The translations under genes were made by a program, and so were the position numbers. From a virus (Duplodnaviria; Heunggongvirae; Uroviricota; Caudoviricetes), in IMG/VR virus record IMGVR_UViG_3300021255_000128, positions 1-64,000 of that record: DNA of 64,000 bases; one strand, given 5' to 3'. The notes under the pieces were generated by a model. That model made no database searches. It saw nothing but the letters and a program-made list of their open reading frames with translations, and was not told the origin of the DNA. Of this stretch, positions 6,966 through 56,047 are shown piece by piece; position 1 is the first letter of the stretch; each line of letters opens with the position of its first letter.

Positions 6966-7383
6966 GTTTTATTCAAGTCTTGATAAGACTCATATCAAAT
7001 TAAAAATTAAAAAAGAATCTACAATCGTCGATGAAAAGAATCATCGAGTAATTCACATTATTGATTGGGAGCTTGATATTTCTGATTTAATAAATATCCT
7101 ATTTTGGGGTATTCATAAGGATGAAGTGAATCTTTATGGTAGAGCAAAAGGTGTAGCTGTTTGTCATCCTGAAGATAAATTCGATCCTGAAATTGGTAAG
7201 AAATTAGCTCGTGCAATTGCAGAATCTAATGCTTACCATAATGCTGCTACAAGAATTCGTAAGCGTTTACGACAGCTTAATAAAATCGTTAATCAAATTT
7301 CCAATATTGGAGCGGATTTTATCATCAAAGCAAAAGATATTGAAATTCATAACAAAGAGTATCAAGATTCATTAATCAAATAA
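6958..7383 (+). CDS. hypothetical protein
   Basis: 141-aa ORF. Confidence 0.5.
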   Translation: MSKFYSSLDKTHIKLKIKKESTIVDEKNHRVIHIIDWELDISDLINILFWGIHKDEVNLYGRAKGVAVCHPEDKFDPEIGKKLARAIAESNAYHNAATRIRKRLRQLNKIVNQISNIGADFIIKAKDIEIHNKEYQDSLIK

Positions 7384-7384
7384 T

Positions 7385-8203
7385 ATGAAAAAGTTTATTT
7401 TCTTCATTGCAGCGATTTTCGTTGCACTTTCTGTAAGCAGTTGTGCTTGCTCTGTTATCGACAATTCAGAAGTCGGTATTAAGTTTAACAAGTTCAGTCT
7501 TACTGATCAGGGTAAGCTTCAGGCAGAGCCTGTAACAGGATGGATTTTCTATAATGGAATTACCCAGAAGGTTTTCAAGTATCCGGTTTTTATCCAGCGA
7601 GTGGATTATGATCCTTTTACTGTAACTACCAAGGATGCTGCTATTTTCTCAATGGATCCTGTTCTTGCATATCAGCTTAATCGTGATAAGGCCACTGATG
7701 TATTTACAAAGTATCGTAAGCCTCTTCGTGATATTGAAGCAGGTTATATGCGTACTTGTATTTATGACGCATATCGTATTACAGCAAATAATTATACTTC
7801 AGACGAATTAATGGCGTCACGTGCTAAATTTGAATCAGAAGTACGTGCAATGCTTGATAAGAGTCTTGGAGATGAAGGATTCATTGTTCAGGAATTTACT
7901 TCACAGATTGATCCTCCAGAATCTCTTCGTAGGATGATTGACTCCAAGAATGAGGCAGTACAAGCCAGTCTTAAGGCTGAAAATCTAGTAAAGGAGGCAG
8001 AAGCTAATGCTAAAATCGCTGTAGCAAAAGCACGAGGAGAAGCAGATGCTATGAAGATTCAGGCAGATGGTGAAGCATATTACAATCGAACAGTTGCTGC
8101 ATCATTGAATGAACTTCTTGTTCGTCAGTATGCAATTGAAAAATGGAATGGTGAGCTTCCTACTTATAATGGAGGACAGACACCGTTTATTAGTGTAAAG
8201 TAA
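7385..8203 (+). CDS. SPFH/band-7 (prohibitin/HflKC-like) domain lipoprotein
   Basis: Signal peptide with lipobox LSVSSC. SPFH-like core followed by an Ala/Glu/Lys-rich coiled coil typical of the family. Confidence 0.7.
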   Translation: MKKFIFFIAAIFVALSVSSCACSVIDNSEVGIKFNKFSLTDQGKLQAEPVTGWIFYNGITQKVFKYPVFIQRVDYDPFTVTTKDAAIFSMDPVLAYQLNRDKATDVFTKYRKPLRDIEAGYMRTCIYDAYRITANNYTSDELMASRAKFESEVRAMLDKSLGDEGFIVQEFTSQIDPPESLRRMIDSKNEAVQASLKAENLVKEAEANAKIAVAKARGEADAMKIQADGEAYYNRTVAASLNELLVRQYAIEKWNGELPTYNGGQTPFISVK

Positions 8204-8205
8204 CT

Positions 8206-8478
8206 ATGTCTTTCTTTGATTATCTTTTGACTATCTTTGTTTGTATTCTCTTTATTTGTATGTTCGTTTTTCTTACAGAAGATGAATGGGGAGAGAAACC
8301 AAAGATTTATTCTAAAGGATACATAATCTTATTCGGATTAGCATCATTTATTCCTTATTTTAATGCATTTCTTGCTATGGCATTAATGTTCATGTATATA
8401 GTGCTTAGAGCAAGTGGTGTATTAAAGCTCAAACGTACTAAATTTACTGAAAAATGGTTTGGTGTAACCGATGATTAA
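8206..8478 (+). CDS. small integral membrane protein
   Basis: Two or three hydrophobic segments. Confidence 0.5.
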   Translation: MSFFDYLLTIFVCILFICMFVFLTEDEWGEKPKIYSKGYIILFGLASFIPYFNAFLAMALMFMYIVLRASGVLKLKRTKFTEKWFGVTDD

Positions 8479-9839: not shown

Positions 9840-10781
9840 TTGTGTAGAAAATTAGAATTACAACCAAAAGGGGGTAATTATAATACTGTAAAAGCAATTA
9901 TTGAAGAAAACGGATTAGATATTTCTCATTTTAAAGGAAAGCATTCAGTTGTAAGAAAAAAGGGCATTTCTAGAATTAATTTATCTGATGTTTTAGAGGG
10001 AAACGTTGTATATGGTAATTCTAACGCACTTAAGGAAAGATTAATTAAAACAGAAGTAAAAGAAAGAAAGTGTGAGTGCTGTGGAAATACAATGTGATTA
10101 GGTCTACCAATTCCATTAGAACTCCATCATAAAAATGGAGATCATTATGATAATCACTTACAAAATTTAGAGTTACTTTGTCCTAACTGTCATGCACTTA
10201 CAGATTCATATCGTGGTAGAAAAATAGATAAAGAACTAGAAGATATAACAGAAGATGTTCAAGAATCCATAAATAAGTTAAAGGAAAAAGAACGTATTAG
10301 AGCTGAAGAAGTTTATAAGAATCATCTAAAAAATGGTGATATTGCAAAACCAAAAGCTACAATGAAAATCAAAAAACCTAAGTATTGTGAATATTGTGGT
10401 AAAGAAATTATCGGTAGAGGATCTAAATATTGCTCACACGAATGTGCATCAAATGCTGCTAAACAAAATATTGTATATGACGCAGATACATTATTAGAAC
10501 AAAGTAAAACTGTACAATCATTAATAGCATTAGCTAAATTATACAATATTACAGATAATGCTCTTAAAAAACATCTTGTTCGATTAAATATTTATGATGA
10601 AATTCGTGCAAATTTTAAATCTAAAACGAAAACTGTTTTGCAATTTGATTCTGATAACAATTTTATAAAAGAATGGGTCTCTGCAAAAGAAGCAGCAGAA
10701 GAGTTAAATCTTCAAAAAAGTAAAATTTTAGCTACGTGCAGAGGTGAACAAAAATCATCTGGTGGATTTGTTTGAAAATAT
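9840..10781 (+). CDS. HNH homing endonuclease with in-frame TGA read as Trp
   Basis: ORFs 9840..10097 and 10362..10775 share a frame and are separated only by TGA. No other stop lies between them. Contains HHKNG...LLCPNCH (HNH), C-terminal CxxC and DNA-binding-like modules. Confidence 0.75.
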
Positions 10782-10789
10782 AAAGAATA

Positions 10790-11450
10790 ATATAATATAA
10801 ACCATTAAGAAAACTAGTAAACAAGACGGTAGCTGTAATCAAGCTTATAGTTCAAATAACAAGAGAACAAAATGTTGCTAGAATTTGAAAGTGCACAACT
10901 TAATGGTTATTTGACTTCGTAGCATAATGGATAATGCAACAGACTTCTTAAAAGGAGTGCTATAGTTGAAAGATTATAGTAGAACCTCCCTAATTCGGTG
11001 AAAGCTAAGTGAATGATGAAAGCAAGATTGTACAGCCAACTCCCAGAAATGGGGAACTATGAAGCAGTTCTTAATGTGTGTACACTCATTTATATGCCAA
11101 TACCGAGCCAATGTTATTAGCAAGGATGACATCTCGAAAGAGTTCAGAAAATAAAAGTCGGAGCTATAGACAGTGTGTAGAGACTATACAGGAGGAATCT
11201 AAGTTGAAATTATTTTATTGTAATTGCAGCCGCCTATTCAATTAGGATAAAACGGAAACGAAGAACAATAAAGTATCTTGCAAGATTTCAATATGGTTAA
11301 GATAGAGTCCAGACCACAAACAGGTATGTAGATATAGGGCTAAACTCCTTATTTGCAACTGGTAGTGAAAACTATAGTGGTAAGCTAATCTGTAGATTGC
11401 GCGTTCGAGTCGCGCCGAAGTCACTAATAACAACTAATAACAATTAATAA
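10790..11450 (+). ncRNA. group-I-intron-like ribozyme core 2 (homologous to core 1)
   Basis: CCTCC-CTAATTCGGTGAAAG (P3/P4), R-like GTGTAGAGACTATACA, P3' GGAGG, S-like TTAAGATAGAGTCC. Shares the 14-nt R segment GTAGAGACTATACA exactly with core 1. Confidence 0.5.
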
Positions 11451-21049: not shown

Positions 21050-21535
21050 ATGAAGAATTTTTCTATTAAAATTGGTTCTCGCGAACACTGGATTAGCCGT
21101 TCTATGGCAGTTGTTGGATTTATAATCTGTGTTACTCGTAATACGATTTATGTTCTTGCAAATAAACGTGGTAATGGTGCACCTGATTATCAAGGTTTAT
21201 GGAATTGTCCTTGTGGATACCTTGATTATAACGAAACCTTAAAAGAAGGATGTGCACGAGAAATATACGAGGAAACTAACTTTAAAATTGATCCAGAACT
21301 ATTAAATCTTTGGAGTATTAATGATGATCCAAAAGATAGTTCTCGTCAAAATGTTACTTTTAGGTTTTTTGCTAAAGTTAATGATTCTGCATTAATTCAA
21401 CATATTTATGCTAAAGGACAAGAACAAGATGAAGTAGCAGATTGTATGTGGATCAATGTAAATGATATTGATAAGTATGAATGGGCATTTAATCATAAAC
21501 AACTTATCAAAGATTTACTATGTTATTTTAAATAA
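21050..21535 (+). CDS. NUDIX hydrolase
   Basis: Nudix box GYLDYNETLKEGCAREIYEETN (G.5E.7REUxEExGU pattern). Confidence 0.75.
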   Translation: MKNFSIKIGSREHWISRSMAVVGFIICVTRNTIYVLANKRGNGAPDYQGLWNCPCGYLDYNETLKEGCAREIYEETNFKIDPELLNLWSINDDPKDSSRQNVTFRFFAKVNDSALIQHIYAKGQEQDEVADCMWINVNDIDKYEWAFNHKQLIKDLLCYFK

Positions 21536-27541: not shown

Positions 27542-28564
27542 ATGAACAAGATTTTAGTTTACACTTCAAACCTCAAAAGTAAGCCTAAGAGTCTTACTGA
27601 TGTTATTAATTTCGCAAAAGAGAACGATAAGTTCCGTATTTGCAATGTTGGGCTTAATGCTCATCTTGGAAACGTTAAGCCTGGTGATAATATTATCACA
27701 GGTAAAGGCAATTCCATTTATGTAATTAAGGCTTTTGATCAGGAGATTGAGAATCTCTCTGGCGAAGATCGTAATTACATTGATAATCTTACTCGCAATT
27801 ATGATATCAAGAAGGTTGGTATCACGAGTGTTTCTGCCGTTATTAAGTACGGTGATTGGTGCAAATTTGCAAAACCGCTTCTCAATGAAGCAAATAATAA
27901 CAAAACAACGATGAATAATAATTCTATTAAGGGTTTCTCCGCCCGTCTTAAGGAGATGTTTATGCCTTCTGAGGCAAAGGATGTTCGTATTGCAACTGAT
28001 GGTAACATCTGTGTAGCTACTTCTAATGGTTATGTTGCCATTGGCGCTGATAATACTCTGGTTTCTTATCCTGAGGAGTTGACTCTGGATCTGCCCGTGT
28101 TTATCGTAAGTAAGCCTATTGATCAGCTTAAGGTTGGTGACGTTATTGCTCGTGACCGTAGCTATGCTAAGGTTAAGTCTATCGCTGATAACAAGATTGG
28201 TGTTATTAGTTATAGCGGTAACGGTTCTCAGGTTTATCCGATCAAGGACTTCCTTCTTGGCCAGTCTGTAGTACGTGTTGTTATATCCCTTGCCGGTTCT
28301 ATCAACGGTTCTATCAATCCTATGGTACTTCTTGCCCTGAGCCAGGATAAGAAGCAAGATTCTTTGCTCCCTCTTCTGCTTATGAGTCAGAATGGTGGTG
28401 CCCTTGGTGCTAACCCTATGCTTATGTATGCAATGATGGGAGATGGTGAGATGGATATGAAGAGTCTCTTCATGATGTCCGCTCTTTCTGGTGGTGCAAA
28501 TCCGTTTGCAAACCTCTTTGGTCAACCTGCTGCTCAGGTTGCAGAACCTGGTGCAAAGGCCTAA
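27542..28564 (+). CDS. hypothetical protein (higher GC, Met/Leu/Gly-rich low-complexity C-terminus)
   Basis: 340-aa ORF. Codon style like the other high-GC genes. Strong terminator follows. Confidence 0.6.
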   Translation: MNKILVYTSNLKSKPKSLTDVINFAKENDKFRICNVGLNAHLGNVKPGDNIITGKGNSIYVIKAFDQEIENLSGEDRNYIDNLTRNYDIKKVGITSVSAVIKYGDWCKFAKPLLNEANNNKTTMNNNSIKGFSARLKEMFMPSEAKDVRIATDGNICVATSNGYVAIGADNTLVSYPEELTLDLPVFIVSKPIDQLKVGDVIARDRSYAKVKSIADNKIGVISYSGNGSQVYPIKDFLLGQSVVRVVISLAGSINGSINPMVLLALSQDKKQDSLLPLLLMSQNGGALGANPMLMYAMMGDGEMDMKSLFMMSALSGGANPFANLFGQPAAQVAEPGAKA

Positions 28565-28576
28565 ATATAATACAAA

Positions 28577-28619
28577 TCCCCTGAGAGAAAGCTGTAGTTC
28601 TTTCAGGGGATTTTTTTTA
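28577..28619 (+). terminator. rho-independent terminator
   Basis: CCCCTGA ... TCAGGGG hairpin followed by T9. Confidence 0.7.
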
Positions 28620-28625
28620 TTTATT

Positions 28626-29345
28626 ATGGAACTAAAATATTTGAATTACGATACTACGTATTCTGTAAATGTAAACGGACGCCAATACAATTTTAACCAC
28701 GAAGCGTGTTTTAGTGATGTATTCAAAAGAATAACTATTACATGTAATGATTTGTGTGTTTATACAATTTGGATAAACCGTTCAGAAGAATATGTAAGAA
28801 GTAGTAACCATGATAATTATTGTTTTCTTACTCCAGAAGAACTTCGTAATCATATTAAAATAGTAAAAAGGCTTTTTGATTTTAAGTATTCTATTAAAGC
28901 TTTTGAAGATCATTATGAAGTAACGATAACAATACAAGGTCCAAAAATACGACATAAATATCTACTTACTTGGATTAGATATACGTACGAATGTCCAATG
29001 AATGTAATGTTTGTTGATATAAATCTACTTAAAAAGGAAAAATTATTTAAGTTTACATCTAAGGCAAACTTATTCTTATTACTTTCTTATGCAAGTGGAA
29101 GTTGGCACCATTATAGAGACATTCATTGTATACCAGAAGGTAATTCTGGTAGATTTTTAACCAATGACGAATTGGCAAATCGTCTTTTCAAGAAGATTTG
29201 TTTAAATGACATTTATACTGGTTCATATAATTTTAGATTTAATGTTCCTGCAGTCTATGACACGGATATAAACAAAATTATTAATACTTATCCAGAACGT
29301 CGTAGTATTTACATAGATAAATATTTAAAATATATAAAGAAATGA
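28626..29345 (+). CDS. hypothetical protein
   Basis: Start refined to the ATG at 28626. TGA stop overlaps the next start (ATGA). Confidence 0.5.
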   Translation: MELKYLNYDTTYSVNVNGRQYNFNHEACFSDVFKRITITCNDLCVYTIWINRSEEYVRSSNHDNYCFLTPEELRNHIKIVKRLFDFKYSIKAFEDHYEVTITIQGPKIRHKYLLTWIRYTYECPMNVMFVDINLLKKEKLFKFTSKANLFLLLSYASGSWHHYRDIHCIPEGNSGRFLTNDELANRLFKKICLNDIYTGSYNFRFNVPAVYDTDINKIINTYPERRSIYIDKYLKYIKK

Positions 29346-29956
29346 AAGTTTATGTAGTTGGTCCTGCAACACACTATACAAACTTTATGTCGAATGTAGA
29401 ATTAACAGACGATATAAAAAAGGCAAAAGTAATTCTTTTTACAGGTGGAGAAGATGTAGATCCATCTATCTACGGTAAAAGAAAACATCCAGAAACGCAT
29501 AGTAATCTTAAACGAGATCTTAAAGAAAAAGAAATCTTTGAAAAGATTCGTCCTGATCAACTAGCTGTGGGAGTCTGCCGTGGATCTCAGCTTCTCTGTG
29601 CTTTAAATGGTGGAAATCTTGTTCAGGATTGTAGTGGACACGCACTATATACAACACACCCTATCTATAGTTTTGAAGGAGACATGGTCTATGAAATAAC
29701 GTCTACACATCATCAGATGCAATATCCTTTTGATTTACCTAATAATGAATATCAAATTTTGTATTATGGTGTAGATGGAAGAGATTTTCGAGGTGATGGT
29801 ATTGACAGTAGATATTTAAATGGATGTAATCCCGAAATTGTTTTATACAAAAGACCTGGATTACCTAAATGTCTTGCAATTCAAGGACATCCTGAAATGA
29901 TTCCAAATAGTCCTGTTGCAAAAATGTTAGATAAATTAATCAAATCATTATGTTAA
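29342..29956 (+). CDS. class-I glutamine amidotransferase-like / peptidase C26 (gamma-glutamyl hydrolase-like)
   Basis: Nucleophile elbow GVCRGSQLL and C-terminal QGHPE (His-Glu) motif typical of GATase1/C26. Confidence 0.65.
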   Translation: MKVYVVGPATHYTNFMSNVELTDDIKKAKVILFTGGEDVDPSIYGKRKHPETHSNLKRDLKEKEIFEKIRPDQLAVGVCRGSQLLCALNGGNLVQDCSGHALYTTHPIYSFEGDMVYEITSTHHQMQYPFDLPNNEYQILYYGVDGRDFRGDGIDSRYLNGCNPEIVLYKRPGLPKCLAIQGHPEMIPNSPVAKMLDKLIKSLC

Positions 29957-30741
29957 TTACAGATTTTACAATTGGAGCTGATCCAGAATTATTTATTGTT
30001 AATTCTAAAACTGGAAAGGTTGTATCATCAATTGGATTGATTCCTGGTGTTAAGGGAGATCCTTATGTTGATGAATGTATGCCTAGAGGATTTGGCCTTG
30101 AAACAGATAATATTCTTGCAGAATTTAACATCCCTGTTTGTAAGACTAAAGAAGAATTTGTCAATAGTATAGAGTGGATGAAGAATTATATTCGTAGTTT
30201 CATTCAAGCTAAAGATCCAGATCTTGATATTAAATGTTCTGCAAGTGAAATAGTTGATGATGATCAACTTCAGAGTGATGAGGCAAAACTTTTTGGATGT
30301 TCTATAGATTATAATGTTTATACAGAGTCTGCAAATCCTAAACCGAAGGGCGAAACAACTAATCTTAGAAGTGCAGGAATGCATATTCATTGTGGGTATG
30401 ATGGATATAATACGAATACATCATTAGAGTTAATTAGGTTATTTGATTTGTTTATTGGAGTCCCTTCTGTACTTTTTGATGAAGATAAACGAAGAAGAGA
30501 TCTTTATGGAAAAGCTGGAGCATTTAGACTTACACCATATGGGTTTGAATATCGAGTACTTTCTAGTTACATGATGTCTTCTGTAGAACTTCTGGAGAAA
30601 GTATGGGCTCAAATTATTCATGCACTATATGCATTTAATCATGGAATTAGATGTAGAGATACTAATTCTGTAATTAATGCAATAAATAATAGTGATAAAA
30701 AATTAGCAAAATTACTTTGCACAAAATATAATCTTTTATAA
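29950..30741 (+). CDS. putative amidoligase-like protein (GS/GCS2-like fold)
   Basis: IGADPELF, GLETDN..AEFNIP, AGMHIHCG and GFEYRV motifs parallel those of the 32003 gene. Confidence 0.4.
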   Translation: MLITDFTIGADPELFIVNSKTGKVVSSIGLIPGVKGDPYVDECMPRGFGLETDNILAEFNIPVCKTKEEFVNSIEWMKNYIRSFIQAKDPDLDIKCSASEIVDDDQLQSDEAKLFGCSIDYNVYTESANPKPKGETTNLRSAGMHIHCGYDGYNTNTSLELIRLFDLFIGVPSVLFDEDKRRRDLYGKAGAFRLTPYGFEYRVLSSYMMSSVELLEKVWAQIIHALYAFNHGIRCRDTNSVINAINNSDKKLAKLLCTKYNLL

Positions 30742-30743
30742 AA

Positions 30744-32015
30744 ATGTGTGGAATATTTGGTATTGTTAGAGAACATCCTGCACAATTTGATTATTCTACG
30801 TTTTGCACACTAGGTATTGCCAACGATTCAAGAGGTGGTGATTCATGTGGTGTATTTATTGATGGAAGTGTTGAGTATGGTATAAAAGATGAGAAGTTAT
30901 TTCAAGACTTTTTTACAAAGAGTGTAGTTTTACAAAATACACATTATTCAACAATTGCATTAGGCCATTGTAGAAAAGCTTCGATCGGAGCAATTAATAT
31001 GAGCACCGCTCAACCAGTTGTAATACAAAATGAAAATAATGAAACTGAATTTGTAGTTCTTCATAATGGAACTATTCATAACTATCAAGATCTTGCTGAA
31101 AAGTATATTCCTGATGTAGACATTAAAGGAATGACTGATAGTCAAGTAATGGCTAGGATCTTCTATTATAAAGGTTATGATGTTCTTGAAGAATATACAG
31201 GTGGTGCTGTATTTTTCATTGTAGATTATCGTGAAGATAAGCCGAGAATAATGTTCTTTAAAGGTGCTTCTAAGAAATACATTAGTGATTTGGAGCTTAC
31301 TGAAGAACGTCCATTATACTTCTGTATTACAGATGATGAAATGGTGTTTTCATCAATTCCCTCATACTTATTAGCACTTCGACCTGATGCAATTTTGTAT
31401 ACTCCTGCAGAAAATGTTCTTGGCGAATTCAAAAACGGAAAACCTGTTGCTATTAAAAAGTATGATCGTAGTGACTGTTTACAACAGAAACTAGGAGGTT
31501 ATTATAATACAACACCTGTAGCAAAATATATGGATTATTTGATGTATAATGCTAATGGATGTTTTCATACAGTTTCCTTCAAAAGAATTAGTGGTGAATA
31601 CTTTATATCAAGTTGGGGTGGTGTATATGAAGGTAAACCTGGTTATTTAGCAACTGAAAAGTTATATCTATTTAACGGTATTCCATTTTTTGATAAGAAA
31701 TATTATGATTTTGTATGTAAATATTTCAGGAAGTCAAATAAAGATATAGATGAATTTACAAAAGACAATGAATACTTAATTAGATATTTAAGTGTTTATC
31801 GTTTATATGTAAAGGATGGAGTTTTATATCTTTTAAAGGAACCTGATATATTAGAACCGTATACGGGTGATTTATCTCCTATTGGGGGTACCAGAACAAG
31901 AAAATATAAAAACGGAACATTTGTTTGTGAGATATATGAACCATATCATCACCCAACAAATAATAGCGTTACAGAAGTAAACTTAAAAGCACTTAAAAAC
32001 TTATGGAAGCTATAA
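30744..32015 (+). CDS. class-II (Ntn) glutamine amidotransferase domain protein with unknown C-terminal domain
   Basis: N-terminal MCGIFG with catalytic Cys2 and a GAT-II-like core. No PP-loop SGGxDS seen, so not asparagine-synthase or QueC-like. Confidence 0.65.
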   Translation: MCGIFGIVREHPAQFDYSTFCTLGIANDSRGGDSCGVFIDGSVEYGIKDEKLFQDFFTKSVVLQNTHYSTIALGHCRKASIGAINMSTAQPVVIQNENNETEFVVLHNGTIHNYQDLAEKYIPDVDIKGMTDSQVMARIFYYKGYDVLEEYTGGAVFFIVDYREDKPRIMFFKGASKKYISDLELTEERPLYFCITDDEMVFSSIPSYLLALRPDAILYTPAENVLGEFKNGKPVAIKKYDRSDCLQQKLGGYYNTTPVAKYMDYLMYNANGCFHTVSFKRISGEYFISSWGGVYEGKPGYLATEKLYLFNGIPFFDKKYYDFVCKYFRKSNKDIDEFTKDNEYLIRYLSVYRLYVKDGVLYLLKEPDILEPYTGDLSPIGGTRTRKYKNGTFVCEIYEPYHHPTNNSVTEVNLKALKNLWKL

Positions 32016-33232
32016 ACGAGTTTACTGGATTAAAAATCTCTAGTCGAATTGTTCGATTTGTAACAGACATTGTAGAAAATATTCTAATTTATGGATATAC
32101 AAATTCATCTAAAGATTTAAGTGAGGGGTTGTTTATCATGGCTGATGGAAACTCTGTCACATCATATTATGATCCTAATCACTTACACTTAGATTGGAGT
32201 CCATATTTTCAGAAGTATTACTGTCTTTTATATGATTGTAAAGATAATCCCAGTTTCTTAATTGATGTATCTAAGTCATTAAAACCTGGAGTATACAGTT
32301 ATTCCTTTGAACGAAAATACGAAGCTGTTCAAAACTTTAAATTGTTTGATAATAAACAATTGAAGATTGAATCGGAAGAATTTCCTATCGCAAAGCATGT
32401 TAAACGTACAATTGGAATAGAATTTGAAACATCTTTGGGATATATTTCAGAAAGAGACTGTTTTAATTATGGATTAATTCCATTAAGAGATGGTTCTATT
32501 TCAGGAATTGAATATTCAACTGTTATATTACAAGGAAACTCCGGATTTAATCTTTTAAAGAAACAGTTAGATTTACTTCGAAATTATACTCATTTTAATA
32601 AAGAGTGCTCACTTCATATTCATTTTGGTAATTTCCCTCTTGATGTAACCAAGATATCTCGACTTTACTCAATATTGTTGAGAATTCAAGACCAGATGGA
32701 ATGGTATGTTCCAGCATTAACATTCCGTACAAATGAATATAAAGCAAATGGAAAATCTTATTGTAAGAAATTGCCTGAATTTGCTAGCTTTGATCAAATG
32801 TTTTATAATTTTACAAGTATGGCATTTTTCGGGAGTTTTGTACAACCACATCCAGATGATTTAACTAGAACTCATAAGTGGAATGTTCACTCTCGTTATT
32901 ATTGGTGTAATTTTGTAAATCTTCTGTGCTACAATGTTAATAAGACAGTAGAGTTTAGATTTTTACGTCCAACTTATAATCTTGAGAAGATATTGACTTG
33001 GATTTATATTCTTAATGGTATTTTAACTTATGCGGAAGGTAACGGTAAAATACAGGGTATTGATTTAAAATATATCTTGAATTCTGTTTATCCTACTGAT
33101 ACTGCAAACATACTACATTATGAATGTACAAAGTTAGTATCTCTTCAGAAAGCTCAATATGATAATGGCGATTTGATTGGTGCAGATCTTACGTTAGAGA
33201 ATAGATTTTTTGAATCTAATAAAATTATTTAA
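32003..33232 (+). CDS. putative amidoligase (Amidoligase_2/GCS2-like)
   Basis: TIGIEFET, RDGSISGIEYST, ECSLHIHFG and TVEFRFL motifs resemble glutamine-synthetase-like COOH-NH2 ligases. Confidence 0.5.
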   Translation: MEAINEFTGLKISSRIVRFVTDIVENILIYGYTNSSKDLSEGLFIMADGNSVTSYYDPNHLHLDWSPYFQKYYCLLYDCKDNPSFLIDVSKSLKPGVYSYSFERKYEAVQNFKLFDNKQLKIESEEFPIAKHVKRTIGIEFETSLGYISERDCFNYGLIPLRDGSISGIEYSTVILQGNSGFNLLKKQLDLLRNYTHFNKECSLHIHFGNFPLDVTKISRLYSILLRIQDQMEWYVPALTFRTNEYKANGKSYCKKLPEFASFDQMFYNFTSMAFFGSFVQPHPDDLTRTHKWNVHSRYYWCNFVNLLCYNVNKTVEFRFLRPTYNLEKILTWIYILNGILTYAEGNGKIQGIDLKYILNSVYPTDTANILHYECTKLVSLQKAQYDNGDLIGADLTLENRFFESNKII

Positions 33233-33254: not shown

Positions 33255-33305
33255 AGCGCATCGTTTTATGGTAACTTTAAGAGGTTCGAATCCTTTGATG
33301 CGCTC
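33255..33305 (+). ncRNA. mini tRNA-like element (acceptor-like stem enclosing a T-arm-like hairpin; no anticodon arm)
   Basis: AGCGCATC ... GATGCGCT 8-bp stem. Internal AGAGG-TTCGAAT-CCTTT. Confidence 0.35.
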
Positions 33306-33322
33306 TAATTTATTTTATAATT

Positions 33323-36664: not shown

Positions 36665-37089
36665 AAGCAAAATTATTAAACCATCTCACTGTTGGCATGC
36701 TCAATATAGTTGGCGACTATGGACATGTTATTCCAGACGAAGAAGTCGAGGTGTTGTGTGGTCCGTTCATATCGACAATCGGTAATTCTCCGATGCTTGC
36801 TTGGTGTCTTTGCGAAGCGAAAGATGGACGTAAATACTACATAGAAGCGACAAATCTTCAAAAGTTAGAACCTTCACTGGAAGATTGGACAAAAGGTGTC
36901 GGGAAGATATTCTCCACACCTGTCGATTTGGACGCTTTTCGCAGGGAGGCGGCTAAAGACATACTTGCAGGATTTGCCGGATCAGTAATGAGGGATGATG
37001 AAATTCTTGAAGATAAAACGGTCAAAGACCTCGTTAAAACTGCGGTAATGTGGACCGACGAACTAATCAAACAGCTTAAAGAAAAATAA
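36661..37089 (+). CDS. hypothetical protein
   Basis: 142-aa ORF. Confidence 0.45.
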   Translation: MKAKLLNHLTVGMLNIVGDYGHVIPDEEVEVLCGPFISTIGNSPMLAWCLCEAKDGRKYYIEATNLQKLEPSLEDWTKGVGKIFSTPVDLDAFRREAAKDILAGFAGSVMRDDEILEDKTVKDLVKTAVMWTDELIKQLKEK

Positions 37090-37597
37090 TTTTTTTATTT
37101 CAATCTTTTTAGTTATATTTGTATGAATTTTTCAACGTTTTCTAAATCGTCATTAATAGCATACCTTAAATATTTTACAACAATGCTATGTCATAAAGAA
37201 GACAAAAATGTAATTAACTTTTTAGAAGATTGTAAAAAAGAATTAAGTAAAAGAAATTAACCTGGCAAGGTTGCATACGTTCAATAGCGTATTATGTTTA
37301 AAACCATTCCGTAGTATAATCAACACAATATTGTTGAGGACGTAAGCCAGACAACGGAAAAAAGGGCTATAATAAGAGTAGAAACCTGAGCCCTTGAACC
37401 TGACTCGCTGGAGGGAGTACGTACGGGAAACCTCAAAACTTTAATCCAGTTGAAAGGTGACAGACCACGGGGTAATTCCCTAGGAGTGCAGTAGACTACT
37501 AAACGTTTTAACTGGTGTGTATGGGACTGGGTAGACCATACTCCGTAATTATTGTAAATCGGACGTAATATCAGACCGCGTAAGAGTCTGGTTTTAA

Positions 37598-37682
37598 CTC
37601 CCAGTGGCGCAATTGGCGAGACGCGCATGTCTTAGGAACATGTACATTAGAAACACTGTAAGTCCGAATCTTACCTGGGAGA
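37598..37682 (+). tRNA. tRNA-Leu (anticodon TAG), type II
   Basis: Acceptor CTCCCAG/CTGGGAG-A, D GCG-CAATTGGCGAGA-CGC, anticodon stem CATGT/ACATG with loop CTTAGGA, long variable arm, T GTAAG-TCCGAAT-CTTAC. Confidence 0.7.
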
Positions 37683-39135: not shown

Positions 39136-39326
39136 TGGTTGCTGGAGACATTGTATACTTTCCATATAAAAATGGATTTATAAGATATAAAATTAGAAAA
39201 ATTATGGAAGACACTTTATTAGTACTTACATATAAAAGTGATGTAATGAATTGTATTCCTATTGATGATGTATTAACAACAGAACAATTTACAAAAATAT
39301 ATAAAAATGAAAAAATCTATGAGTAG
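39135..39326 (+). CDS. hypothetical small protein
   Basis: 63-aa ORF. Confidence 0.35.
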   Translation: MVAGDIVYFPYKNGFIRYKIRKIMEDTLLVLTYKSDVMNCIPIDDVLTTEQFTKIYKNEKIYE

Positions 39327-40407
39327 TTTTGATAGGTATTACATATCTCCTGCATTAGTTTCTGATATAGAACATCGCTCAGAGTGTGTACCTTATTATA
39401 ACGCTTTTTATTCTGATGAACAAGGTGGTTGGTGTTTAAGTGGAGCTCATCTTCCAATCTTTGTTGCACCAATGGCATGTATTATTGATGAACATAATTA
39501 CATGAAATTTGATAATGAAGGATTAAATCCAATTATTCCAAGAACTGTTGATTTTCAGAAGAGACTTGAAATAATGAAACAGATGATTTGGATTGCTGTT
39601 GGATTAGATGAATTGGATTGGATTATTGATAATTATGAGCATTTTGATTCAGAGGTTTATATTTGTGTGGACATTGCAAATGGGCACATGAGAAAACTTC
39701 TTGATAAATGTAAGCAAGCAAAGCTTAAATTTGGACAAAATCTAAATTTAATGGCTGGTAATATTGCAAATCCATATACATATATAGAATATGCGAAAGC
39801 TGGCATTGATTATGTTAGATGCACTATTGGTGATGGACAAGCTTGTGCTACTGCTGATCTAACAGGAATTAGTCAGAATACACCAGAATTTATTAATGTT
39901 ATTAAAAAAATTAAAACATCGATTACAGAAAATTTTATAGAAAATAAAGAATATCTTTCTATTCCTAAAATTGTAATTGATGGCGGTATTTCTAAAATTA
40001 GAGACATTGTTATTGCCCTTGCCCTTGGTGCTGATTATGTAATGTGTGGAAAGATTTTTGCTCAATCTGAAGAAGCTTGTGGAGAAATCTTTGAAAAATT
40101 AATACCTGTAACAAGAGAGGAAATTTGTGATACATGTATTCCGAAAAAGATTAATACAGTAACTGTATCAGAATGGATTCCTGGAAGAATGTATTATGGA
40201 ATGTCTACACAGCGCGCTCAAAAAGAAATGGGAAACAAGCGATTAAAATCTTCTGAAGGTTATGAATATTGGGTTCCTATTGAATATAAACTTTCGGATT
40301 GGGTAAAACAATTTGTTGATGTGATAGCTTCTACAATGAGTTATTGTAATTGTACTCAACTTGGAGAATTTATTGGAAAAGTCGCTTGGCTTGAATATAA
40401 AAAATAA
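39307..40407 (+). CDS. IMP dehydrogenase/GMP reductase family TIM-barrel protein (GuaC-like)
   Basis: VDIANGH (cf. DTAHGH), catalytic-loop-like TIGDGQACATADLTG, and IVIDGGISKIRDIVIALALGADYVMCG (cf. IADGGI..GDI.KALAAGA..VM.G). Confidence 0.6.
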   Translation: MKKSMSSFDRYYISPALVSDIEHRSECVPYYNAFYSDEQGGWCLSGAHLPIFVAPMACIIDEHNYMKFDNEGLNPIIPRTVDFQKRLEIMKQMIWIAVGLDELDWIIDNYEHFDSEVYICVDIANGHMRKLLDKCKQAKLKFGQNLNLMAGNIANPYTYIEYAKAGIDYVRCTIGDGQACATADLTGISQNTPEFINVIKKIKTSITENFIENKEYLSIPKIVIDGGISKIRDIVIALALGADYVMCGKIFAQSEEACGEIFEKLIPVTREEICDTCIPKKINTVTVSEWIPGRMYYGMSTQRAQKEMGNKRLKSSEGYEYWVPIEYKLSDWVKQFVDVIASTMSYCNCTQLGEFIGKVAWLEYKK

Positions 40408-40699: not shown

Positions 40700-41563
40700 A
40701 TGTTAACAAAAGATGATTTAACTCCAGAATTATTACAAAAAGAATTTGATTCTGGACTTTGACACATTGAAATAGGAGAAAAATATCATGTGTCATCAAG
40801 AACTATTTATGATTACGTTAAGAAATGAAATCTAAACGTTCCTCGTAAAAATAAAAAGAAAGAGGTTATAAAATTTGTATGTAAAAATTGTGGCAAAGAA
40901 TTTACTAAACTTGAACCAGAGGGTATTTGTTGAAACTGTAAACAAAAAAGAGATACTTTAGTAAACCAAGTACCTATTGAAAATAATAGTAATAGTAAAT
41001 ATCTTACAAATGTTTTAAAATTAAGAGCTGAAGGTTTATCTTATAAAAAGATTGCTGAAAAACTTGGGTGTAGTACATCAACGATATCTTATTTGTTATC
41101 AGATAAAACTAGAGAAAAACGCAAAGTACGATTAGAAAAATATAAAGACAATTGATATTTTTATTTAAAAAGACGTTTATCTGATTTTAGAACTAGAACT
41201 CCTGGCAATAATGTGACAATTAAGTGTGTCGATTGAAAAATAAAATTACAAAAAGGAATACAACGATTTAAAAATAGAAATAATATTATGCCTACGACAA
41301 ATTTTACATACAAAGATGTTCTTGATAAATTTGGAACAGTTGTTCAATGTGAACTAACCGGTAGAACAATTGATTTAACCAAAGATGATTACAATATTGA
41401 TCATATTATACCAGTTTCAAAAGGTGGTACAAATAATTTAGATAATTTAGCTTTTACCACTCCTGAAGCAAATGCTGCCAAAAATGGGCTTACCAATGAA
41501 GAGTTTGTAGCATTATGTAAAGAGGTTTGTGAACATTTTGGGTATACGGTAGTAAAAAATTAA
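40700..41563 (+). CDS. HNH endonuclease with HTH domain and 6 in-frame TGA codons
   Basis: LuxR/sigma-like HTH LSYKKIAEKLGCSTSTISYLL. HNH DHIIPVSKGGTNNLDNLAFTTPEANAAKNG. The frame is continuous only if TGA is sense. Confidence 0.7.
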
Positions 41564-41580
41564 TATAACATAAAAATATT

Positions 41581-41657
41581 CGTCTTGTCGTCCAATGGAA
41601 TTAGGACAGCTGTCTTCAAAATAGCCAATCAGGGTTTGAGTCCTTGCAAGACGACCA
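41581..41657 (+). tRNA. opal suppressor tRNA (anticodon TCA, reads UGA); Trp-like; CCA encoded
   Basis: Acceptor CGTCTTG/CAAGACG-A-CCA, D GTCC-AATGGAATTA-GGAC, anticodon stem GCTGT/ATAGC (one G-U) with loop CTTCAAA, T CAGGG-TTTGAGT-CCTTG. Confidence 0.75.
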
Positions 41658-42141: not shown

Positions 42142-42316
42142 TATGGAAATTTTATTTATTTATTCGATTCCTTGTATCATAAGTTTTTTACTTATGAATC
42201 AATGTTATAAGAAAAAATTGTTAGATTATCCAATGCTTTCTGCATTAAGTTGTATTATTCCTTTTGTAAATTGGATTGGATTAATATGTTTTATATGTAA
42301 ATTAATAAATGGTTAA
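42110..42316 (+). CDS. small membrane protein
   Basis: Hydrophobic. Confidence 0.4.
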   Translation: MIFYILELKFNMEILFIYSIPCIISFLLMNQCYKKKLLDYPMLSALSCIIPFVNWIGLICFICKLING

Positions 42317-43895
42317 TGAATTAAAGTTTGGGAAATATGCGAAAGATTCTCTTCTAGCAGGAATGTCAAAAATTGCTGAAGCAGTTGGATCAACTCTTGG
42401 TCCAAAAGGAAAATGTGTAATTCTCGATAATTATTCTAACGGTCTTCCACATGTGACTAAAGATGGAGTCACAGTTGCAAAAAATATTTTTCTTGAAAAT
42501 AAATTTGAAAATGTTGGTGCAACTTTACTAAAACAAGCTGCATTAAATACCGTACGCTCTGTTGGTGATGCAACTACATCTTCAACAGTTTTAGCATATA
42601 AGATGGTAGCTAATGCATACCCAATGCTTGAAGGACACAATTTGTCGTTAATTAAAAAAGGTATATCTAAAGCAGCAACCCACGTTCAAGAAACTATTCA
42701 AAATTCTTCAATGCCTGTTAATTGGGAGGAATTAGAAAAAATTGCAACAATTTCTGCAAATAATGATATAGAAATAGGAAAAATTGTAGCAGATGCTTTT
42801 AATAAAGTTGGATTGGATGGTGTAATTACGGTTGAAGAATCTCCAAACAATAAAACAACAATTGATATTATTAATGGTATGCAATTTGATCGAGGGTTTG
42901 AATCACACTGGTTTATTACAGATAAATCTAAGGGCGAATGTGTTCTTGAAAATCCATTAATTCTTATAACTGATCAAAAAGTACAATTAACTAGAGAAAT
43001 TCTTCCTGCTGCAGAATATTGTGCAAAAAATGGCAGAGCCATGTTAATTATTGCACAAGATTTCGATGATGAAGTTGTTCAAAATCTTCGAATAAATCAT
43101 CTTCAAGGAAATATTAAATGTTGTCTTGTAAAAGCACCATCGTTTGGAGATTATAGAAAATATGTTTTAGATGATTTAGCATTACTTACAAATGCAAAAT
43201 TAGCTACATATGACAATGGAATCGAACTACAAAAAGTAGACGGTTCTATGCTTGGATCTTGTGGTAAAGTAGTAATTACTAAAGATTCTACTACAATTTT
43301 AAACGGTGCTGGTGATGCAAAACTTATAGCAGAACGAGTTTCAGAAATTAAAACTCTTTTATCAACACTTCAATCTGGAGAAGAAGTTTTACAAAAATTT
43401 CATAAAGAACGTATTGCTCGTTTAGTTGGTGGAATTTGTTCAATTAAAGTTGGAGCTACTTCTGAACTTGAAATGAAAGAAAAGAAAGATAGAGTTGATG
43501 ATGCTGTTTGTGCAACAAGAGCTGCTTGTGAAGAAGGTATTGTTCCTGGTGGAGGAATTACATTTATGAAGGCATTTTTAACTATGCCTACAAGTGATGT
43601 TCGTGATGAACAGATTGGAATAGATATTATTAAAAACGCATTAACATCTGTATTTGATAAGATTGTTGATAACGCAGGTTACAATCCAAGAGAAATTGGA
43701 CAACAAGTATATCCTGAAGATAATATATCTTGGAATGCTGATACAGAAAAATATGAAAACTTCCTTGATGCTGGAATAATTAATCCTGCTAAGGCTGACA
43801 GACTTGCATTTGAAAATGCAATAGGTGTACTAAATATGTTTATTTCTACTAATTGTATAATTACAGAAAAAGATGTGTTTGCAGAAATTAAATAA
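42309..43895 (+). CDS. groEL-like: GroEL-like chaperonin (Cpn60 family)
   Basis: N-terminus aligns motif-for-motif with GroEL (KFG..A..LL.G...AEAVGSTLGPKG..V.LD......P.VTKDGVTVAK.I.LE.KFEN.GA.LLK). Length 528 aa. Confidence 0.85.
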   Translation: MVNELKFGKYAKDSLLAGMSKIAEAVGSTLGPKGKCVILDNYSNGLPHVTKDGVTVAKNIFLENKFENVGATLLKQAALNTVRSVGDATTSSTVLAYKMVANAYPMLEGHNLSLIKKGISKAATHVQETIQNSSMPVNWEELEKIATISANNDIEIGKIVADAFNKVGLDGVITVEESPNNKTTIDIINGMQFDRGFESHWFITDKSKGECVLENPLILITDQKVQLTREILPAAEYCAKNGRAMLIIAQDFDDEVVQNLRINHLQGNIKCCLVKAPSFGDYRKYVLDDLALLTNAKLATYDNGIELQKVDGSMLGSCGKVVITKDSTTILNGAGDAKLIAERVSEIKTLLSTLQSGEEVLQKFHKERIARLVGGICSIKVGATSELEMKEKKDRVDDAVCATRAACEEGIVPGGGITFMKAFLTMPTSDVRDEQIGIDIIKNALTSVFDKIVDNAGYNPREIGQQVYPEDNISWNADTEKYENFLDAGIINPAKADRLAFENAIGVLNMFISTNCIITEKDVFAEIK

Positions 43896-44604
43896 ATACG
43901 ATGTTTATGCAACATCGGATTTACATGGAATTCTACCAAAAATAGATACTCCTTTTGATTTATTACTTCTTGCAGGAGATTTAGTGAATCTTTATATGCA
44001 AAGAGATATGGGAGATACTATAGAATGGTATGAAGGTCCATTTGTAAATTGGATTAATACTCTTCCATTTAAAGATGAAAGCGGTAAAGTTCTTTGGATT
44101 GCGGGAAATCATGAAGTTGGTTGGGAAAAACTTGTTCCAGAAGGAAGAAGAAAAATTGCAAACCATATGACAGAATTAACTAATGGTAGAGCAATTTATC
44201 TTGAAGACGATTTATACGATTTTAATGGTATAAAAGTGTATGGAACACCATGGTGTAAAATCTTTGGAAATTGGGCATTTATGAAAAATGAGGACGGTTT
44301 AAAAGAAGTTTATTCTCAAATTCCAGAGGATGTAGATATTCTTTTAACACATGATGCTCCATACGGAACTTCAGATTTATGTTTTGAATGGATAGCTTGG
44401 GGAAAAACTCCATATCACATAGGTAATAAACCACTAAGAGATATAATTATTGAAAAATGTCCTGATTTTAATTTACATGGACATCTTCATTCAGCAAATC
44501 ATGCTGAAGAAGTACTTAATAATACTAAAGTTTTTAACGTTAGTTTAGTTGATGAAGCTTATAAGGAGGCATATTCTCCTTTATATCTAGAAATAATAAA
44601 ATAA
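43873..44604 (+). CDS. calcineurin-like metallophosphoesterase
   Basis: SDLHG, AGDLV, GNHE and GHLH motifs. Confidence 0.7.
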   Translation: MCLQKLNKYDVYATSDLHGILPKIDTPFDLLLLAGDLVNLYMQRDMGDTIEWYEGPFVNWINTLPFKDESGKVLWIAGNHEVGWEKLVPEGRRKIANHMTELTNGRAIYLEDDLYDFNGIKVYGTPWCKIFGNWAFMKNEDGLKEVYSQIPEDVDILLTHDAPYGTSDLCFEWIAWGKTPYHIGNKPLRDIIIEKCPDFNLHGHLHSANHAEEVLNNTKVFNVSLVDEAYKEAYSPLYLEIIK

Positions 44605-50814: not shown

Positions 50815-52033
50815 ATGGATAGAACAGAACGACAAAAACTCTGTTTAAAACGATGATTAAACTCTGGAGGCAAAGCAAGTATTGAGGCTTGCACAGGGTT
50901 TCGGAAAAACTAGAGTAGCTTTAAATCTTATAGATGCATTTACTGCTAAAAATCCAGAAGCTCAGACATTAGTAGTTGTTCCTACTCAAATCCTCAAAGA
51001 TCAATGAATACAACAAATCGATGAAAGAGGATTAGGATTAAATGCTAGAGTTGAGATAATTAATTCAGTTATTAAATTGGATTGGATTTGTGATCTTCTT
51101 GTAGTAGATGAGGTTCATGTTTGTGGAAGTGATACTTTTCAAAGAGTGTTTCAATGTGTAAATTATAAGTTTATTCTTTGTTTAACTGGAACAATGGAAC
51201 GATTGGATATGAGACATCTTCTCATTGAAAAATTTGCTCCAATTTGTGATAGAGTTACAATTGAAGAAGCGGAACAAAATGGATGAGTGTCTCCACATAA
51301 AGAATACCTTGTACTATTAAATGTAGATCTTACTGAATATAATGAATGGACTCGTAAATTTAATAATTATTTTTCTTATATGAATTATGATTTTTCATTA
51401 GGTATGAAGTTAGCAACAGATCCAATTTTTAGAAATTCATGAGCTAAAACAATGGGATTGGATTCTAAAAAGACAGCTGCTATTGCAATGGATTGGATGA
51501 GAATGATGAAAAATCGAAAGAATTTTATTCAAAATCATCCTAAAAAGTTAGAAGTTGCAAAGAAAATAATTGAAGCAAGAAAGGATAAAAAGATAATGAC
51601 CTTTTCTGCTACAATTAAACAAGCAGAGTCTTTTGGATTTGGATATGTAGTTCATTCTGATAAAAAATCAAAAGAAAATAAGGAAACACTTGAAGCGTTT
51701 AACAATGCTGAATCTGGAGTTTTACACTCCTCAAAAGCATGTAATACTGGATTGGATTTAAAAGGAATTAACTGTGAAATCATTATGAACACAGATTCTT
51801 CCAAAATCAAAAAAGTACAAACTGTTGGAAGAAGTTTAAGATTTGAGCAAGGTAAAACCGCTGAAATTTTTACACTTGTTTTGGCAGGTACACAAGAAGT
51901 AAAATGATTTACGAATAGTAAAGCATCTAAAGTAATAACAATTAATGAAGATCAGTTAGATAAAATACTAGCTGGTGAAAATATTGAAACTCGGGAAAGA
52001 AATTATTCCGAAAATTTAACATTTAGATTTTAA
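50815..52033 (+). CDS. SF2 (DEAD/DEVH-box) helicase; needs a +1 frame change near 50897-50903 plus 4 TGA as Trp
   Basis: Frame 1 MDRTERQ...IEACTGF, then frame 2 FGKTRVAL... together give motif I ACTGFGKT across the GGGTTTC homopolymer junction. DEVH box VVDEVH. Motif VI TVGRSLR. Confidence 0.6.
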
Positions 52034-54925: not shown

Positions 54926-56047
54926 ATGGATAAAACAGAACAAATTTTAAATTTAGTAAAAACAACAGAGTTAAATATAACAGATATTGCAAAAAAAGTT
55001 GAATTATCAAAAGAAGATGTTATAAAAATTCTTATACATAACGAATATTATAGACTTGCCGATAATCCAAGAGCAAAATTTTTTTCTGTTAAGAAACTGC
55101 ATGACGCTGCTATTGATTATATAAATAATTTTAATGGAACGTTATCAATTAATACATTCATTAAAGAACGAGGTGTAGAAGCACAAGTTTTTAGGGAATA
55201 TATTAGGAAATGATATCCAGATAATCAAGCTATAAGATACAGCCGATATAATGCAACAATATTTGATAATATAGATACAGAAGAAAAAGCGTATTGACTT
55301 GGATTTATTTTTGCCGATGGATACATTACAGATCCTGAAACATCAACATCACATCGTTATAAATTTGAATTATCTTTATCAAGTAAAGATGAGGAACATT
55401 TAAGAAAATTTGCAAGATTCGTTGATTTTACTGGTGCAATTGAGCATAGAACAATTAAATCTTGTCCTACTGGAAATAAAAACTCGTATCCGACTGTAAG
55501 AATTATATTGAACGGTCAGCATTTATGAGAAACATTAAATTCTTATGGATGTACTCCAAGAAAAAGTCTTACACTTAAATTTCCAGATATATCTATATTT
55601 AAAAATATGTCTTTGATTCGACATTTTATTCGTGGATATTTTGATGGAGATGGTACAATTGGTATTTATGACTCAAAGGGCTGTTATAATGGAAAAGAGT
55701 ATAATTATAGTCATAACAAATGTCAATGTGGAATGTTGGGCACACAGGAATTTCTAAGCACTATGTGTAAGTACTTACCTTTTGATAATAAAATTTCTTT
55801 ACACGGTAATGAAAAACATCCATGCAATGCTTATAATATTCAATTTGTATGTAAAGAAGCGTTTGCTATTGCATTTTATTTATATTATAAAAGTTCTGTT
55901 TATTTAGATAGAAAATATGTCAAATTTTTAGAATATTGCCGTTTATATAAGGAATTATATAAAATATTAGAGGGCAGTATCGGGGAAGACTGTGATGTTG
56001 ATCCCGAGCTAATTAAATCTATTACGAAAGGAGATTTAATAGCGTAA
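54926..56047 (+). CDS. double-motif LAGLIDADG homing endonuclease with 3 in-frame TGA codons
   Basis: LGFIFADGYI and IRGYFDGDGTI motifs. Track ORFs 54926..55213 and 55607..56047 share a frame. Confidence 0.75.

Follow-up and report, generated by a model that had tools for sequence, protein, structure and literature searches.

A conserved five-gene amidoligase–glutamine amidotransferase cassette in an uncultured tailed phage and its possible role in amide-bond formation

The IMG/VR record IMGVR_UViG_3300021255_000128 represents a virus of the Caudoviricetes, and its positions 1 to 64,000, the 64-kb stretch analysed here (the window), are part of a genome of probably at least 150 kb. A preliminary description of this DNA had reported a cassette of four genes for two amidoligases and two glutamine amidotransferases (GATases). 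The four plus-strand open reading frames (ORFs) are indeed found at 29342-33232 with all quoted motifs, but a conserved fifth gene directly upstream, w239, had been missed (Table 1). The packing is operon-like, as described: the class-I GATase gene (GAT1) overlaps that of the COOH-NH2 ligase (CNL) by 7 nt, a 2-nt spacer separates the latter from the class-II GATase gene (GAT2), and GAT2 overlaps the Amidoligase_2 gene (AL2) by 13 nt, while the TGA stop codon of w239 shares 4 nt (ATGA) with the GAT1 start codon. To judge from this arrangement, w239-GAT1-CNL-GAT2-AL2 is a five-gene, translationally coupled operon. A terminator-like hairpin sets the preceding gene, w340, apart from the five-gene block, which supports the ATG at 28626 as the start of w239. 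The four enzyme genes contain no in-frame TGA and have TAA stops at either boundary, and their limits are therefore independent of the genetic code used. Inspection of the sequences by eye revealed neither a signal peptide at an N-terminus nor a long hydrophobic segment.

Table 1. Features of the amidoligase–GATase cassette and its upstream flank (positions refer to the window).
Feature	Position	Strand	Basis or remark
w340, conserved neighbour gene	27542..28564	+	No family match; upstream of cassette
Terminator-like hairpin	28574..28613	+	16-bp stem followed by T-run; consensus scan, pattern match only
w239, 239 aa, unannotated family	28626..29345	+	Homologue conservation
GAT1, class-I GATase / Peptidase_C26, 204 aa	29342..29956	+	Pfam, PHROG
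CNL, phiEco32-type COOH-NH2 ligase type 2, 263 aa	29950..30741	+	Pfam, PHROG
GAT2 N-terminal half, class-II Ntn glutaminase domain	30744..31358	+	Pfam; starts MCGIFG
GAT2 C-terminal half, ~218 aa, beta-hairpin-rich orphan domain	31359..32015	+	Predicted structure
AL2, Amidoligase_2 (GS-like) ATP-dependent ligase, 409 aa	32003..33232	+	Pfam

The family assignments of the preliminary description held up, as a Pfam run placed all four enzymes above the curated cut-offs and PHROGs agreed. GAT1 matched Peptidase_C26 (PF07722; 7.7e-13, 49.2 bits against a cut-off of 20.5) and PHROG 7218 (glutamine amidotransferase; 4.3e-31), whereas its score with the generic GATase model PF00117 (20.2 bits) fell slightly under the cut-off of 22.8. 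Its best NCBIfam match, gamma-glutamyl-CDP-amidate hydrolase, was weak (9e-5, 22.6 bits against a cut-off of 250). The protein carries the motifs GVCRGSQ and GHPE, and the triad Cys79-His183-Glu185 is conserved across 71 homologues at the threshold of at least 95% that was applied throughout, to sets of 71–79 homologues. GAT1 is thus a predicted class-I GATase and member of the C26 family, and either free glutamine or a gamma-glutamyl amide would fit its sequence. CNL matched PF14395 (1.5e-13, 51 bits against a cut-off of 25) and PHROG 3815 (COOH.NH2 ligase; 1e-63), and is a predicted ATP-dependent carboxylate-amine ligase. In 24 diverse homologues, including those of the phages tf, phi14:2 and Lbo-JY46, residues E13, E58, H145, H147, R182, E200 and R202 are invariant and N60 and R183 nearly so. 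AL2 was assigned to PF12224 (3.1e-10, 40.8 bits against a cut-off of 22) and to the PHROG amidoligase family (1.2e-13). It contains the motifs GIEFE, DGS, LHIHFG and EFRF; its invariant residues are E140, E142, R162, D163, G164, S165, E170, H205 and H207 and, further downstream, K247, H283, D286, K292, W293, R298, E317 and R319. The N-terminal ~100 aa of AL2 are family-specific and variable in sequence and length. Sequence and profile searches found no solved structure for CNL and no relative in the PDB for AL2.

The whole GAT2 gene (30744-32015, plus strand) encodes 423 aa. Its Pfam matches, all above cut-off, were GATase_6 (PF13522; 1.3e-14), GATase_7 (PF13537; 4.4e-09) and GATase_4 (PF13230; 1.1e-05), and they are confined to residues 1–210. 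The closest solved relative is the glutaminase domain of PurF (2.3e-08), and the weak matches of the N-terminal domain to models of AsnB-type and N-acetylglutaminylglutamine amide (NAGGN) amidotransferases stayed far under the respective cut-offs. Conserved are Cys2 (at least 90%), Arg30-Gly31, Asn108-Gly109 and Asp132. The catalytic sites of all four enzymes are predicted to be intact, and all four are apparently active. The C-terminal half of GAT2 yielded a confident structure model that is rich in beta-hairpins, has few invariant residues and found no structural relative. A phosphoribosyltransferase (PRTase), SIS or PP-loop synthase domain in this region was rejected by Pfam and by structure comparison of the model, so GAT2 lacks a fused acceptor domain like those of PurF, GlmS, AsnB and GltS (PRTase, SIS, PP-loop, TIM barrel). 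As a synthase domain is not recognisable in GAT2 itself, the ammonia that it releases, or else its activity as a hydrolase, would have to serve another protein. Because it is free of catalytic-looking conservation, the orphan domain probably serves to dock the partner ligase or to hold the substrate.

For the comparison with other phages, ORFs were called in each locus and sorted by BLAST and with profiles built for this analysis. A scan with an amidoligase alignment provided 80 IMG/VR loci, where an earlier scan with a single protein had returned zero, and homologue searches recovered 802 Amidoligase_2-type and 772 GATase-II-type proteins on contigs of up to 181 kb and ~375 kb. In 77 of 86 sources, at ~40–99% identity, GATase-I, COOH-NH2 ligase, GATase-II and Amidoligase_2 follow one another directly and in this order, so that the gene-neighbourhood check suggested in the preliminary description finds the cassette anything but absent from relatives. 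Three contigs with gene calls of their own repeat this arrangement of the four genes. Members of the w239 family are present in 80 of 89 sources, 27 of which carry a duplicate. Moreover, the called GATase-II and Amidoligase_2 ORFs overlap in the loci of most relatives.

Two architectures surround this core. The large-phage architecture, w340 - w239 - GATase-I - ligase - GATase-II - amidoligase, is shared by 34 sources including the window, mostly of ~140–350 kb. The Crassvirales architecture (mostly ~70–110 kb) runs from a primase via an optional gamma-glutamyl cyclotransferase (GGCT), a RimK-like ATP-grasp protein and one or two w239 paralogues to the four enzymes, which are often followed by a uracil-DNA glycosylase (UDG). 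ATP-grasp and GGCT genes are absent from all 34 loci of the large-phage type, and tblastn found no ATP-grasp, GGCT or UDG in the 64-kb window. Consistently, none of the best 80 IMG/VR matches of the ATP-grasp protein lies on a contig with the large-phage architecture. An expanded cassette is present in Leptolyngbya phage Lbo-JY46 (L087, 3754-16512), which has three GATase-I paralogues, a GGCT, the ligase, a 536-aa ATP-grasp protein, a 729-aa GATase-II and the amidoligase, directly 3' of genes for PncB and phosphoribosyl pyrophosphate (PRPP) synthetase. In some relatives, a transfer-messenger RNA (tmRNA) lies a few kb upstream of the cassette (L062, 1909-2239; L074, 4116-4605); none was found in the window.

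Of the two unannotated genes, w239 belongs to a family with 403 representatives at 50% identity. Neither w239 nor w340 matched any Pfam, PHROG or NCBIfam family, and a relationship of w239 to tf_17, tf_18 or their equivalents in the Cronobacter phage was not detectable. w340 is located directly upstream of w239 in 36 loci, and its conservation as a neighbour is limited to the large-phage architecture, where it takes the place that the ATP-grasp gene has in Crassvirales-type loci. The C-terminal tail of w340 is rich in Met, Gly and Pro and probably disordered. Residues 132–283 have homologues in the crAss-like phage cr85_1, which itself is not among the ligase matches in the phage collection, and a region of roughly residues 154–327 has weaker matches in Bacillus jumbo phages. 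A kinship of w340 with gp029 of cr108_1 was rejected, as the alignment (19%) proved spurious and gp029 belongs, as a paralogue, to the w239 family. The hairpin between w340 and w239 suggests that w340 is transcribed separately from, or more abundantly than, the cassette, of which it is probably a neighbour and not a functional part.

Several relatives carry mobile elements within the enzyme genes. A group I intron interrupts the amidoligase gene of L062 (10889-11173) and L067 (10888-11337) a few codons ahead of the invariant pair R298-Y299. In L062, the COOH-NH2 ligase gene is also split, at RSAG|HIH, by a 1.1-kb insert (7184-8307) containing an ORF with LAGLIDADG-like motifs (7290-8162). Split GATase-I, ligase and amidoligase genes occur in other loci as well, including L006, L030, L034, L057, L074 and L076. 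Homing elements usually insert in highly conserved, expressed genes, and introns and inserts in catalytic motifs of the relatives' ligase genes therefore support the functional importance of these enzymes. A search with the AL2 subtype against 185,579 species genomes hit 11 contigs, all of them in metagenome bins and six of them 75–161 kb long. The length of these six is suggestive of phage contigs, and the subtype seems to be limited to phage-like contigs.

Phage amidoligase cassettes were reportedly defined by comparative genomics by Iyer, Abhiman, Burroughs and Aravind in 2009 (Mol Biosyst 5:1636), and PF14395 is said to have been named from them. The preliminary description had connected the window to these predicted cassettes, and the connection is borne out by the joint occurrence of ligase, Amidoligase_2 and class-II GATase as in tf and Cronobacter phage 009. 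The window cassette is best described as the form that amidoligase cassettes of the phiEco32/LUZ24 type take in the crAss lineage; in the archetype, COOH-NH2 ligase, Amidoligase_2 and class-II GATase likewise lie in one early or middle operon of lytic phages. Compared with that archetype, it lacks ATP-grasp and GGCT but possesses GATase-I and w239. In the LUZ24-like phage tf, the ligase tf_19 is a clear homologue of the window ligase (profile E-value ~1e-81), but the order differs (ligase, tf_20, Amidoligase_2, GATase-II, ATP-grasp, GGCT), and the amidoligase has diverged beyond the reach of the window-family profile. No kinship to GATase-I or w239 was detectable for tf_20 and two upstream tf proteins of ~300 aa. 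In both tf and Cronobacter phage 009, Amidoligase_2 and GATase-II are adjacent, in inverted order relative to the window. Closer is the uncultured phage cr108_1 (Crassvirales, Steigviridae, Asinivirinae, as is phi14:2), whose genes gp028-gp034 share the order GATase-I, ligase, GATase-II, amidoligase, the last of these being annotated as 'hypothetical'. Identities between the window proteins and those of cr108_1 are 53% for the ligase and 42% for Amidoligase_2. Directly upstream, cr108_1 has two w239 paralogues (gp029 and gp030). In cr108_1 and Cellulophaga phage phi14:2 (g037-g041), a RimK-like ATP-grasp gene precedes the cassette, which lies between primase and UDG, and neither feature is found in the window; phi14:2 in addition has a GGCT and is devoid of GATase-I and w239. 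The kind of cassette is thus known, and versions are deposited in cr108_1 and phi14:2; what is added here is the core of five genes, the pair of architectures, the orphan domain of GATase-II, the evidence from introns and the apparent limitation of the AL2 subtype to phage-like contigs. A search of the literature found no experimentally determined product or target and no biochemically characterised member of PF14395, 15 or more years after the prediction.

For the function of the cassette we tentatively prefer a mechanism that we consider possible, if short of probable, namely that two ligase/glutaminase pairs act in the cytoplasm and form amide bonds on a substrate that bears carboxylates. 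The class-I GATase would pair with the COOH-NH2 ligase, and the class-II GATase of the N-terminal nucleophile (Ntn) type with Amidoligase_2. Within each pair, the ligase, with its glutamine synthetase (GS)/glutamate–cysteine ligase (GCS) fold, would activate the carboxylate with ATP as an acyl-phosphate, while the partner glutaminase would hydrolyse glutamine and provide the nitrogen. In two successive steps, carboxylates of one glutamate-like small molecule or peptide might so be turned into amides or acquire amide-linked groups, with w239 as a putative obligate accessory protein. In this scheme we infer that the enzymes pair into complexes, that nitrogen is transferred and that the substrate is not DNA. 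That each ligase works with the adjacent glutaminase is suggested by the subunit size of GATase-I and by the missing acceptor domain of GATase-II; a minimal size is typical of glutaminase subunits such as HisH, PdxT and PabA, to which the 204 aa of GATase-I are comparable. The ORF overlaps of GATase-II and amidoligase, and the adjacency of the two that persists despite their inversion in tf and Cronobacter phage 009, also argue for a pairing. The proposed logic is shared by MurT/GatD, which amidates iso-Glu of peptidoglycan, and by Ngg/AsnO of the NAGGN pathway, where an ATP-dependent, carboxylate-activating ligase and a separate glutaminase produce a carboxamide. The synthetases of these systems, however, have Mur-ligase, PP-loop or ATP-grasp folds, whereas the window ligases are GS-like.

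Several points weigh against this mechanism. We know of no demonstrated cooperation between a GS-fold ligase and a glutaminase subunit, and the characterised pairings of GS/GCS-like with GATase-like enzymes are, to our knowledge, all sequential, with the ligase forming a gamma-glutamyl amide that is hydrolysed later. Many relatives encode GGCT and RimK-like ATP-grasp proteins, which point to gamma-glutamyl intermediates rather than to simple amidation. Furthermore, the proposal does not account for the role of w239. The more far-reaching view that GS-fold ligases fed with nitrogen by dedicated glutaminases, together with the orphan docking domain and w239, make a phage-specific amidated metabolite or modification important for infection across the surveyed crAss-lineage phages is doubtful in our judgement. 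If true, it would mean an enzyme architecture without characterised precedent; the surveyed phages are Steigviridae and phages of 140–350 kb, very abundant gut viruses among them.

The objections to amidation by ligase/glutaminase pairs lead to a different chemistry, transient gamma-glutamylation, the main rival, which we regard as rather unlikely. In this scheme the ligases would join the gamma-carboxyl of glutamate to an amine, for example that of a polyamine, amino sugar or peptide, and the GATase-like proteins would hydrolyse the product later, so that glutamate would be a protecting or carrier group instead of the nitrogen donor. GS/GCS-like ligases are paired with GATase-like hydrolases in PuuA/PuuD (putrescine), IpuC/IpuF (isopropylamine) and EgtA/EgtC (ergothioneine), and these characterised precedents all act in this way. 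They have the superfamilies in common with the window, a GS/GCS2-fold ligase and a class-I C26 or class-II Ntn GATase-like enzyme, but their ligases are true GS or GCS2 proteins, whereas those of the window belong to the orphan families PF14395 and PF12224. The better fit of GAT1 to Peptidase_C26, the gamma-glutamyl hydrolase family, than to the generic GATase model would agree with such a role, as would its weak best NCBIfam match to a hydrolase of a gamma-glutamyl amide and the presence of GGCT and a RimK-like glutamate ligase in relatives among the Crassvirales and LUZ24-like phages and in a cyanophage. The Pfam entry for PF12224 is said to link amidoligases with GATase-like peptidases or Aig2 cyclotransferases. 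However, the architecture found in the window has neither cyclotransferase nor ATP-grasp, and the conserved residues of GAT2 suit free glutamine equally well as gamma-glutamyl-X. Moreover, the Puu, Ipu and Egt pathways place oxidising or tailoring enzymes between ligation and hydrolysis, while the window operon has no oxidase, transferase or other tailoring gene, and ligase and hydrolase alone would amount to a futile cycle. A further proposal concerns the target rather than the chemistry and thereby overlaps the other readings: the enzymes might act on peptides or proteins, either on peptidoglycan precursors, whose stem-peptide carboxylates would be amidated or receive additions, or by tagging host or phage proteins, and so block superinfection or reprogram the host. 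PMC11318856 and PMC10580990 attribute this proposal, made for phiEco32, to Iyer et al. (2009). Hosts of cassette-bearing phages include Pseudomonas, enterobacteria, Vibrio, Bacteroidota and cyanobacteria, and with so wide a host range the target should be universal, like the peptidoglycan stem peptide. The ATP-grasp protein of the relatives is annotated as RimK-like, a family of protein C-terminal glutamate ligases, and MurT/GatD offers a precedent in which a glutaminase and an ATP-dependent ligase amidate lipid II (PMC3267633). Yet a peptide or protein target has no experimental support in any phage, the operon includes no membrane-associated or cell-wall-binding component, and w340, the candidate protein substrate, is separated from it by the hairpin and has homologues in phages that lack the cassette; we deem this target unlikely.

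The preliminary description had considered a nucleotide or DNA modification worth testing on account of neighbouring genes. The neighbours exist: a NUDIX protein (21050-21535), Metallophos phosphoesterases (at 16624, 33595 and 43873), an IMPDH/GMP-reductase-like protein (39307-40407) and a MazZ-like protein with a dGTP_diPhyd_N domain. Specific support for hypermodification, an amide-linked adduct on nucleotides or phage DNA that evades restriction, did not emerge from them, since the NUDIX, GMP-reductase-like and phosphoesterase genes lie 0.4–13 kb from the cassette and are not its conserved neighbours in relatives. The evidence in favour is positional. The Crassvirales cassette is part of the replication module, 3' of the primase and in about half of the cases directly upstream of UDG, the LUZ24-like cassette adjoins a primase/helicase gene, and amidoligase and amidotransferase genes are associated with thymidine-hypermodification clusters in viral metagenomes (Lee et al. 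2021; PMC8989533). Among window ORFs of at least ~110 aa, by contrast, there is no hypermodification, deazaguanine or base-exchange gene (dUMP/dCMP hydroxymethylase, 5-HMUDK, aGPT-Pplase, TET/JBP, DpdA/TGT, QueC-like), nor do hypermodification genes appear in the Pfam tables of three related contigs, and a domain for binding DNA or nucleotides is not recognisable in any cassette component. For phage tf, whose cassette is distantly related, virion DNA was cut by RsaI, HpaI, EcoRV, SmaI and HaeIII and cloned (PMC3517423); the recognition sites of the five enzymes jointly cover all four bases. The analysis thus lowers the likelihood of a DNA-modification role, which we now rate as very unlikely. 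A 2-aminoadenine (Z) genome, brought to mind by the dATP/dGTP diphosphohydrolase N-terminal domain of the MazZ-like protein (PF18909; 60168-60926, plus strand), a family known from phages with such genomes, was rejected: the adjacent 351-aa ORF encodes a PDDEXK protein and not PurZ, and no PurZ was seen in the window. The same applies to non-canonical NAD amidation, prompted by PncB and PrsA beside the Lbo-JY46 cassette and by Nampt near a w340-like gene in cr85_1, because these linkages are sporadic and a Zeta crAss-like phage has a canonical NadE (PMC12386605). Finally, genome papers, including those on a Planctomycetes phage and OM43 phages, have annotated such genes as auxiliary metabolism, which would boost glutamine/glutamate turnover or nitrogen assimilation in the host. 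This is hardly credible for the window cassette, given that the AL2 subtype is found only on phage-like contigs, that neither ligase is near enough to a housekeeping enzyme to match a solved structure, and that a fixed five-gene order with an orphan partner is unlike a simple booster.

Ligase-centred cassettes are common, as tblastn with CNL matched 319 deposited phage genomes, including LUZ24-like and crAss-like gut phages. Identification of the product would explain a conserved early function of highly abundant human gut viruses and might uncover a new type of amidotransferase. The window phage is uncultured, but the cassette has cultured carriers in phi14:2, LUZ24, tf and phiEco32.

The whole window has a G+C content of ~31%, a positive GC skew and nearly every gene on the plus strand, and it contains 19 tRNA genes, among them one with a UCA anticodon (41581-41657). 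The reading frames of primase (57145-58149) and helicase (50900-51907) each include four in-frame TGA, and three of the four in the primase are at Trp-compatible positions (e.g., ELN*WLKYG and LEQ*RIYF). TGA codons at Trp-like sites together with the UCA-anticodon tRNA indicate that the phage recodes TGA (opal) to Trp, replication genes included. The 151-aa Helicase_C ORF at 51452-51907 is an effect of in-frame TGA codons in the longer helicase frame. Zeta crAss-like gut phages have genomes of 155–177 kb with 6–26 tRNAs, suppress opal codons, and group their replication and tRNA genes in a forward block (PMC12386605). The traits of the window would match this group, a placement we infer because deposited phages offer no DNA-level match: a DNA-level search of the phage collection gave just a 278-bp match to cr108_1, and megablast gave none.

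Other window products are a GroEL-like chaperonin, an SPFH protein, a Sak4-like ATPase, a PDDEXK protein and homing-endonuclease domains. Several homing elements in the early region are suggested by a NUMOD/I-HmuI-like ORF (10362-10775), an HNH ORF (41288-41563) and an ORF whose LAGLIDADG match is weak and below threshold (55607-56047). Immediately after the gene of the 528-aa chaperonin comes one for a metallophosphoesterase (42309-44604, plus strand), and this pair is kept in a 168-kb contig that carries P0009. A segment of ~500 bp just upstream of a tRNA-Leu (37089-37598) has a slightly higher G+C content and neither a plus-strand ORF nor an Rfam match. Just 3' of the amidoligase stop codon lies a tRNA-like 'top half' (33255-33310, plus strand), which combines an acceptor-like 7-bp stem (GCGCATC/GATGCGC) with a T-arm (AGAGG-TTCGAAT-CCTTT), lacks an anticodon arm, and scores 15.9 bits with the Rfam tRNA model while receiving no ARAGORN call. 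In L029, a nearly identical top half is present at 11244-11296, although the flanking proteins are just ~56% identical to those of the window.

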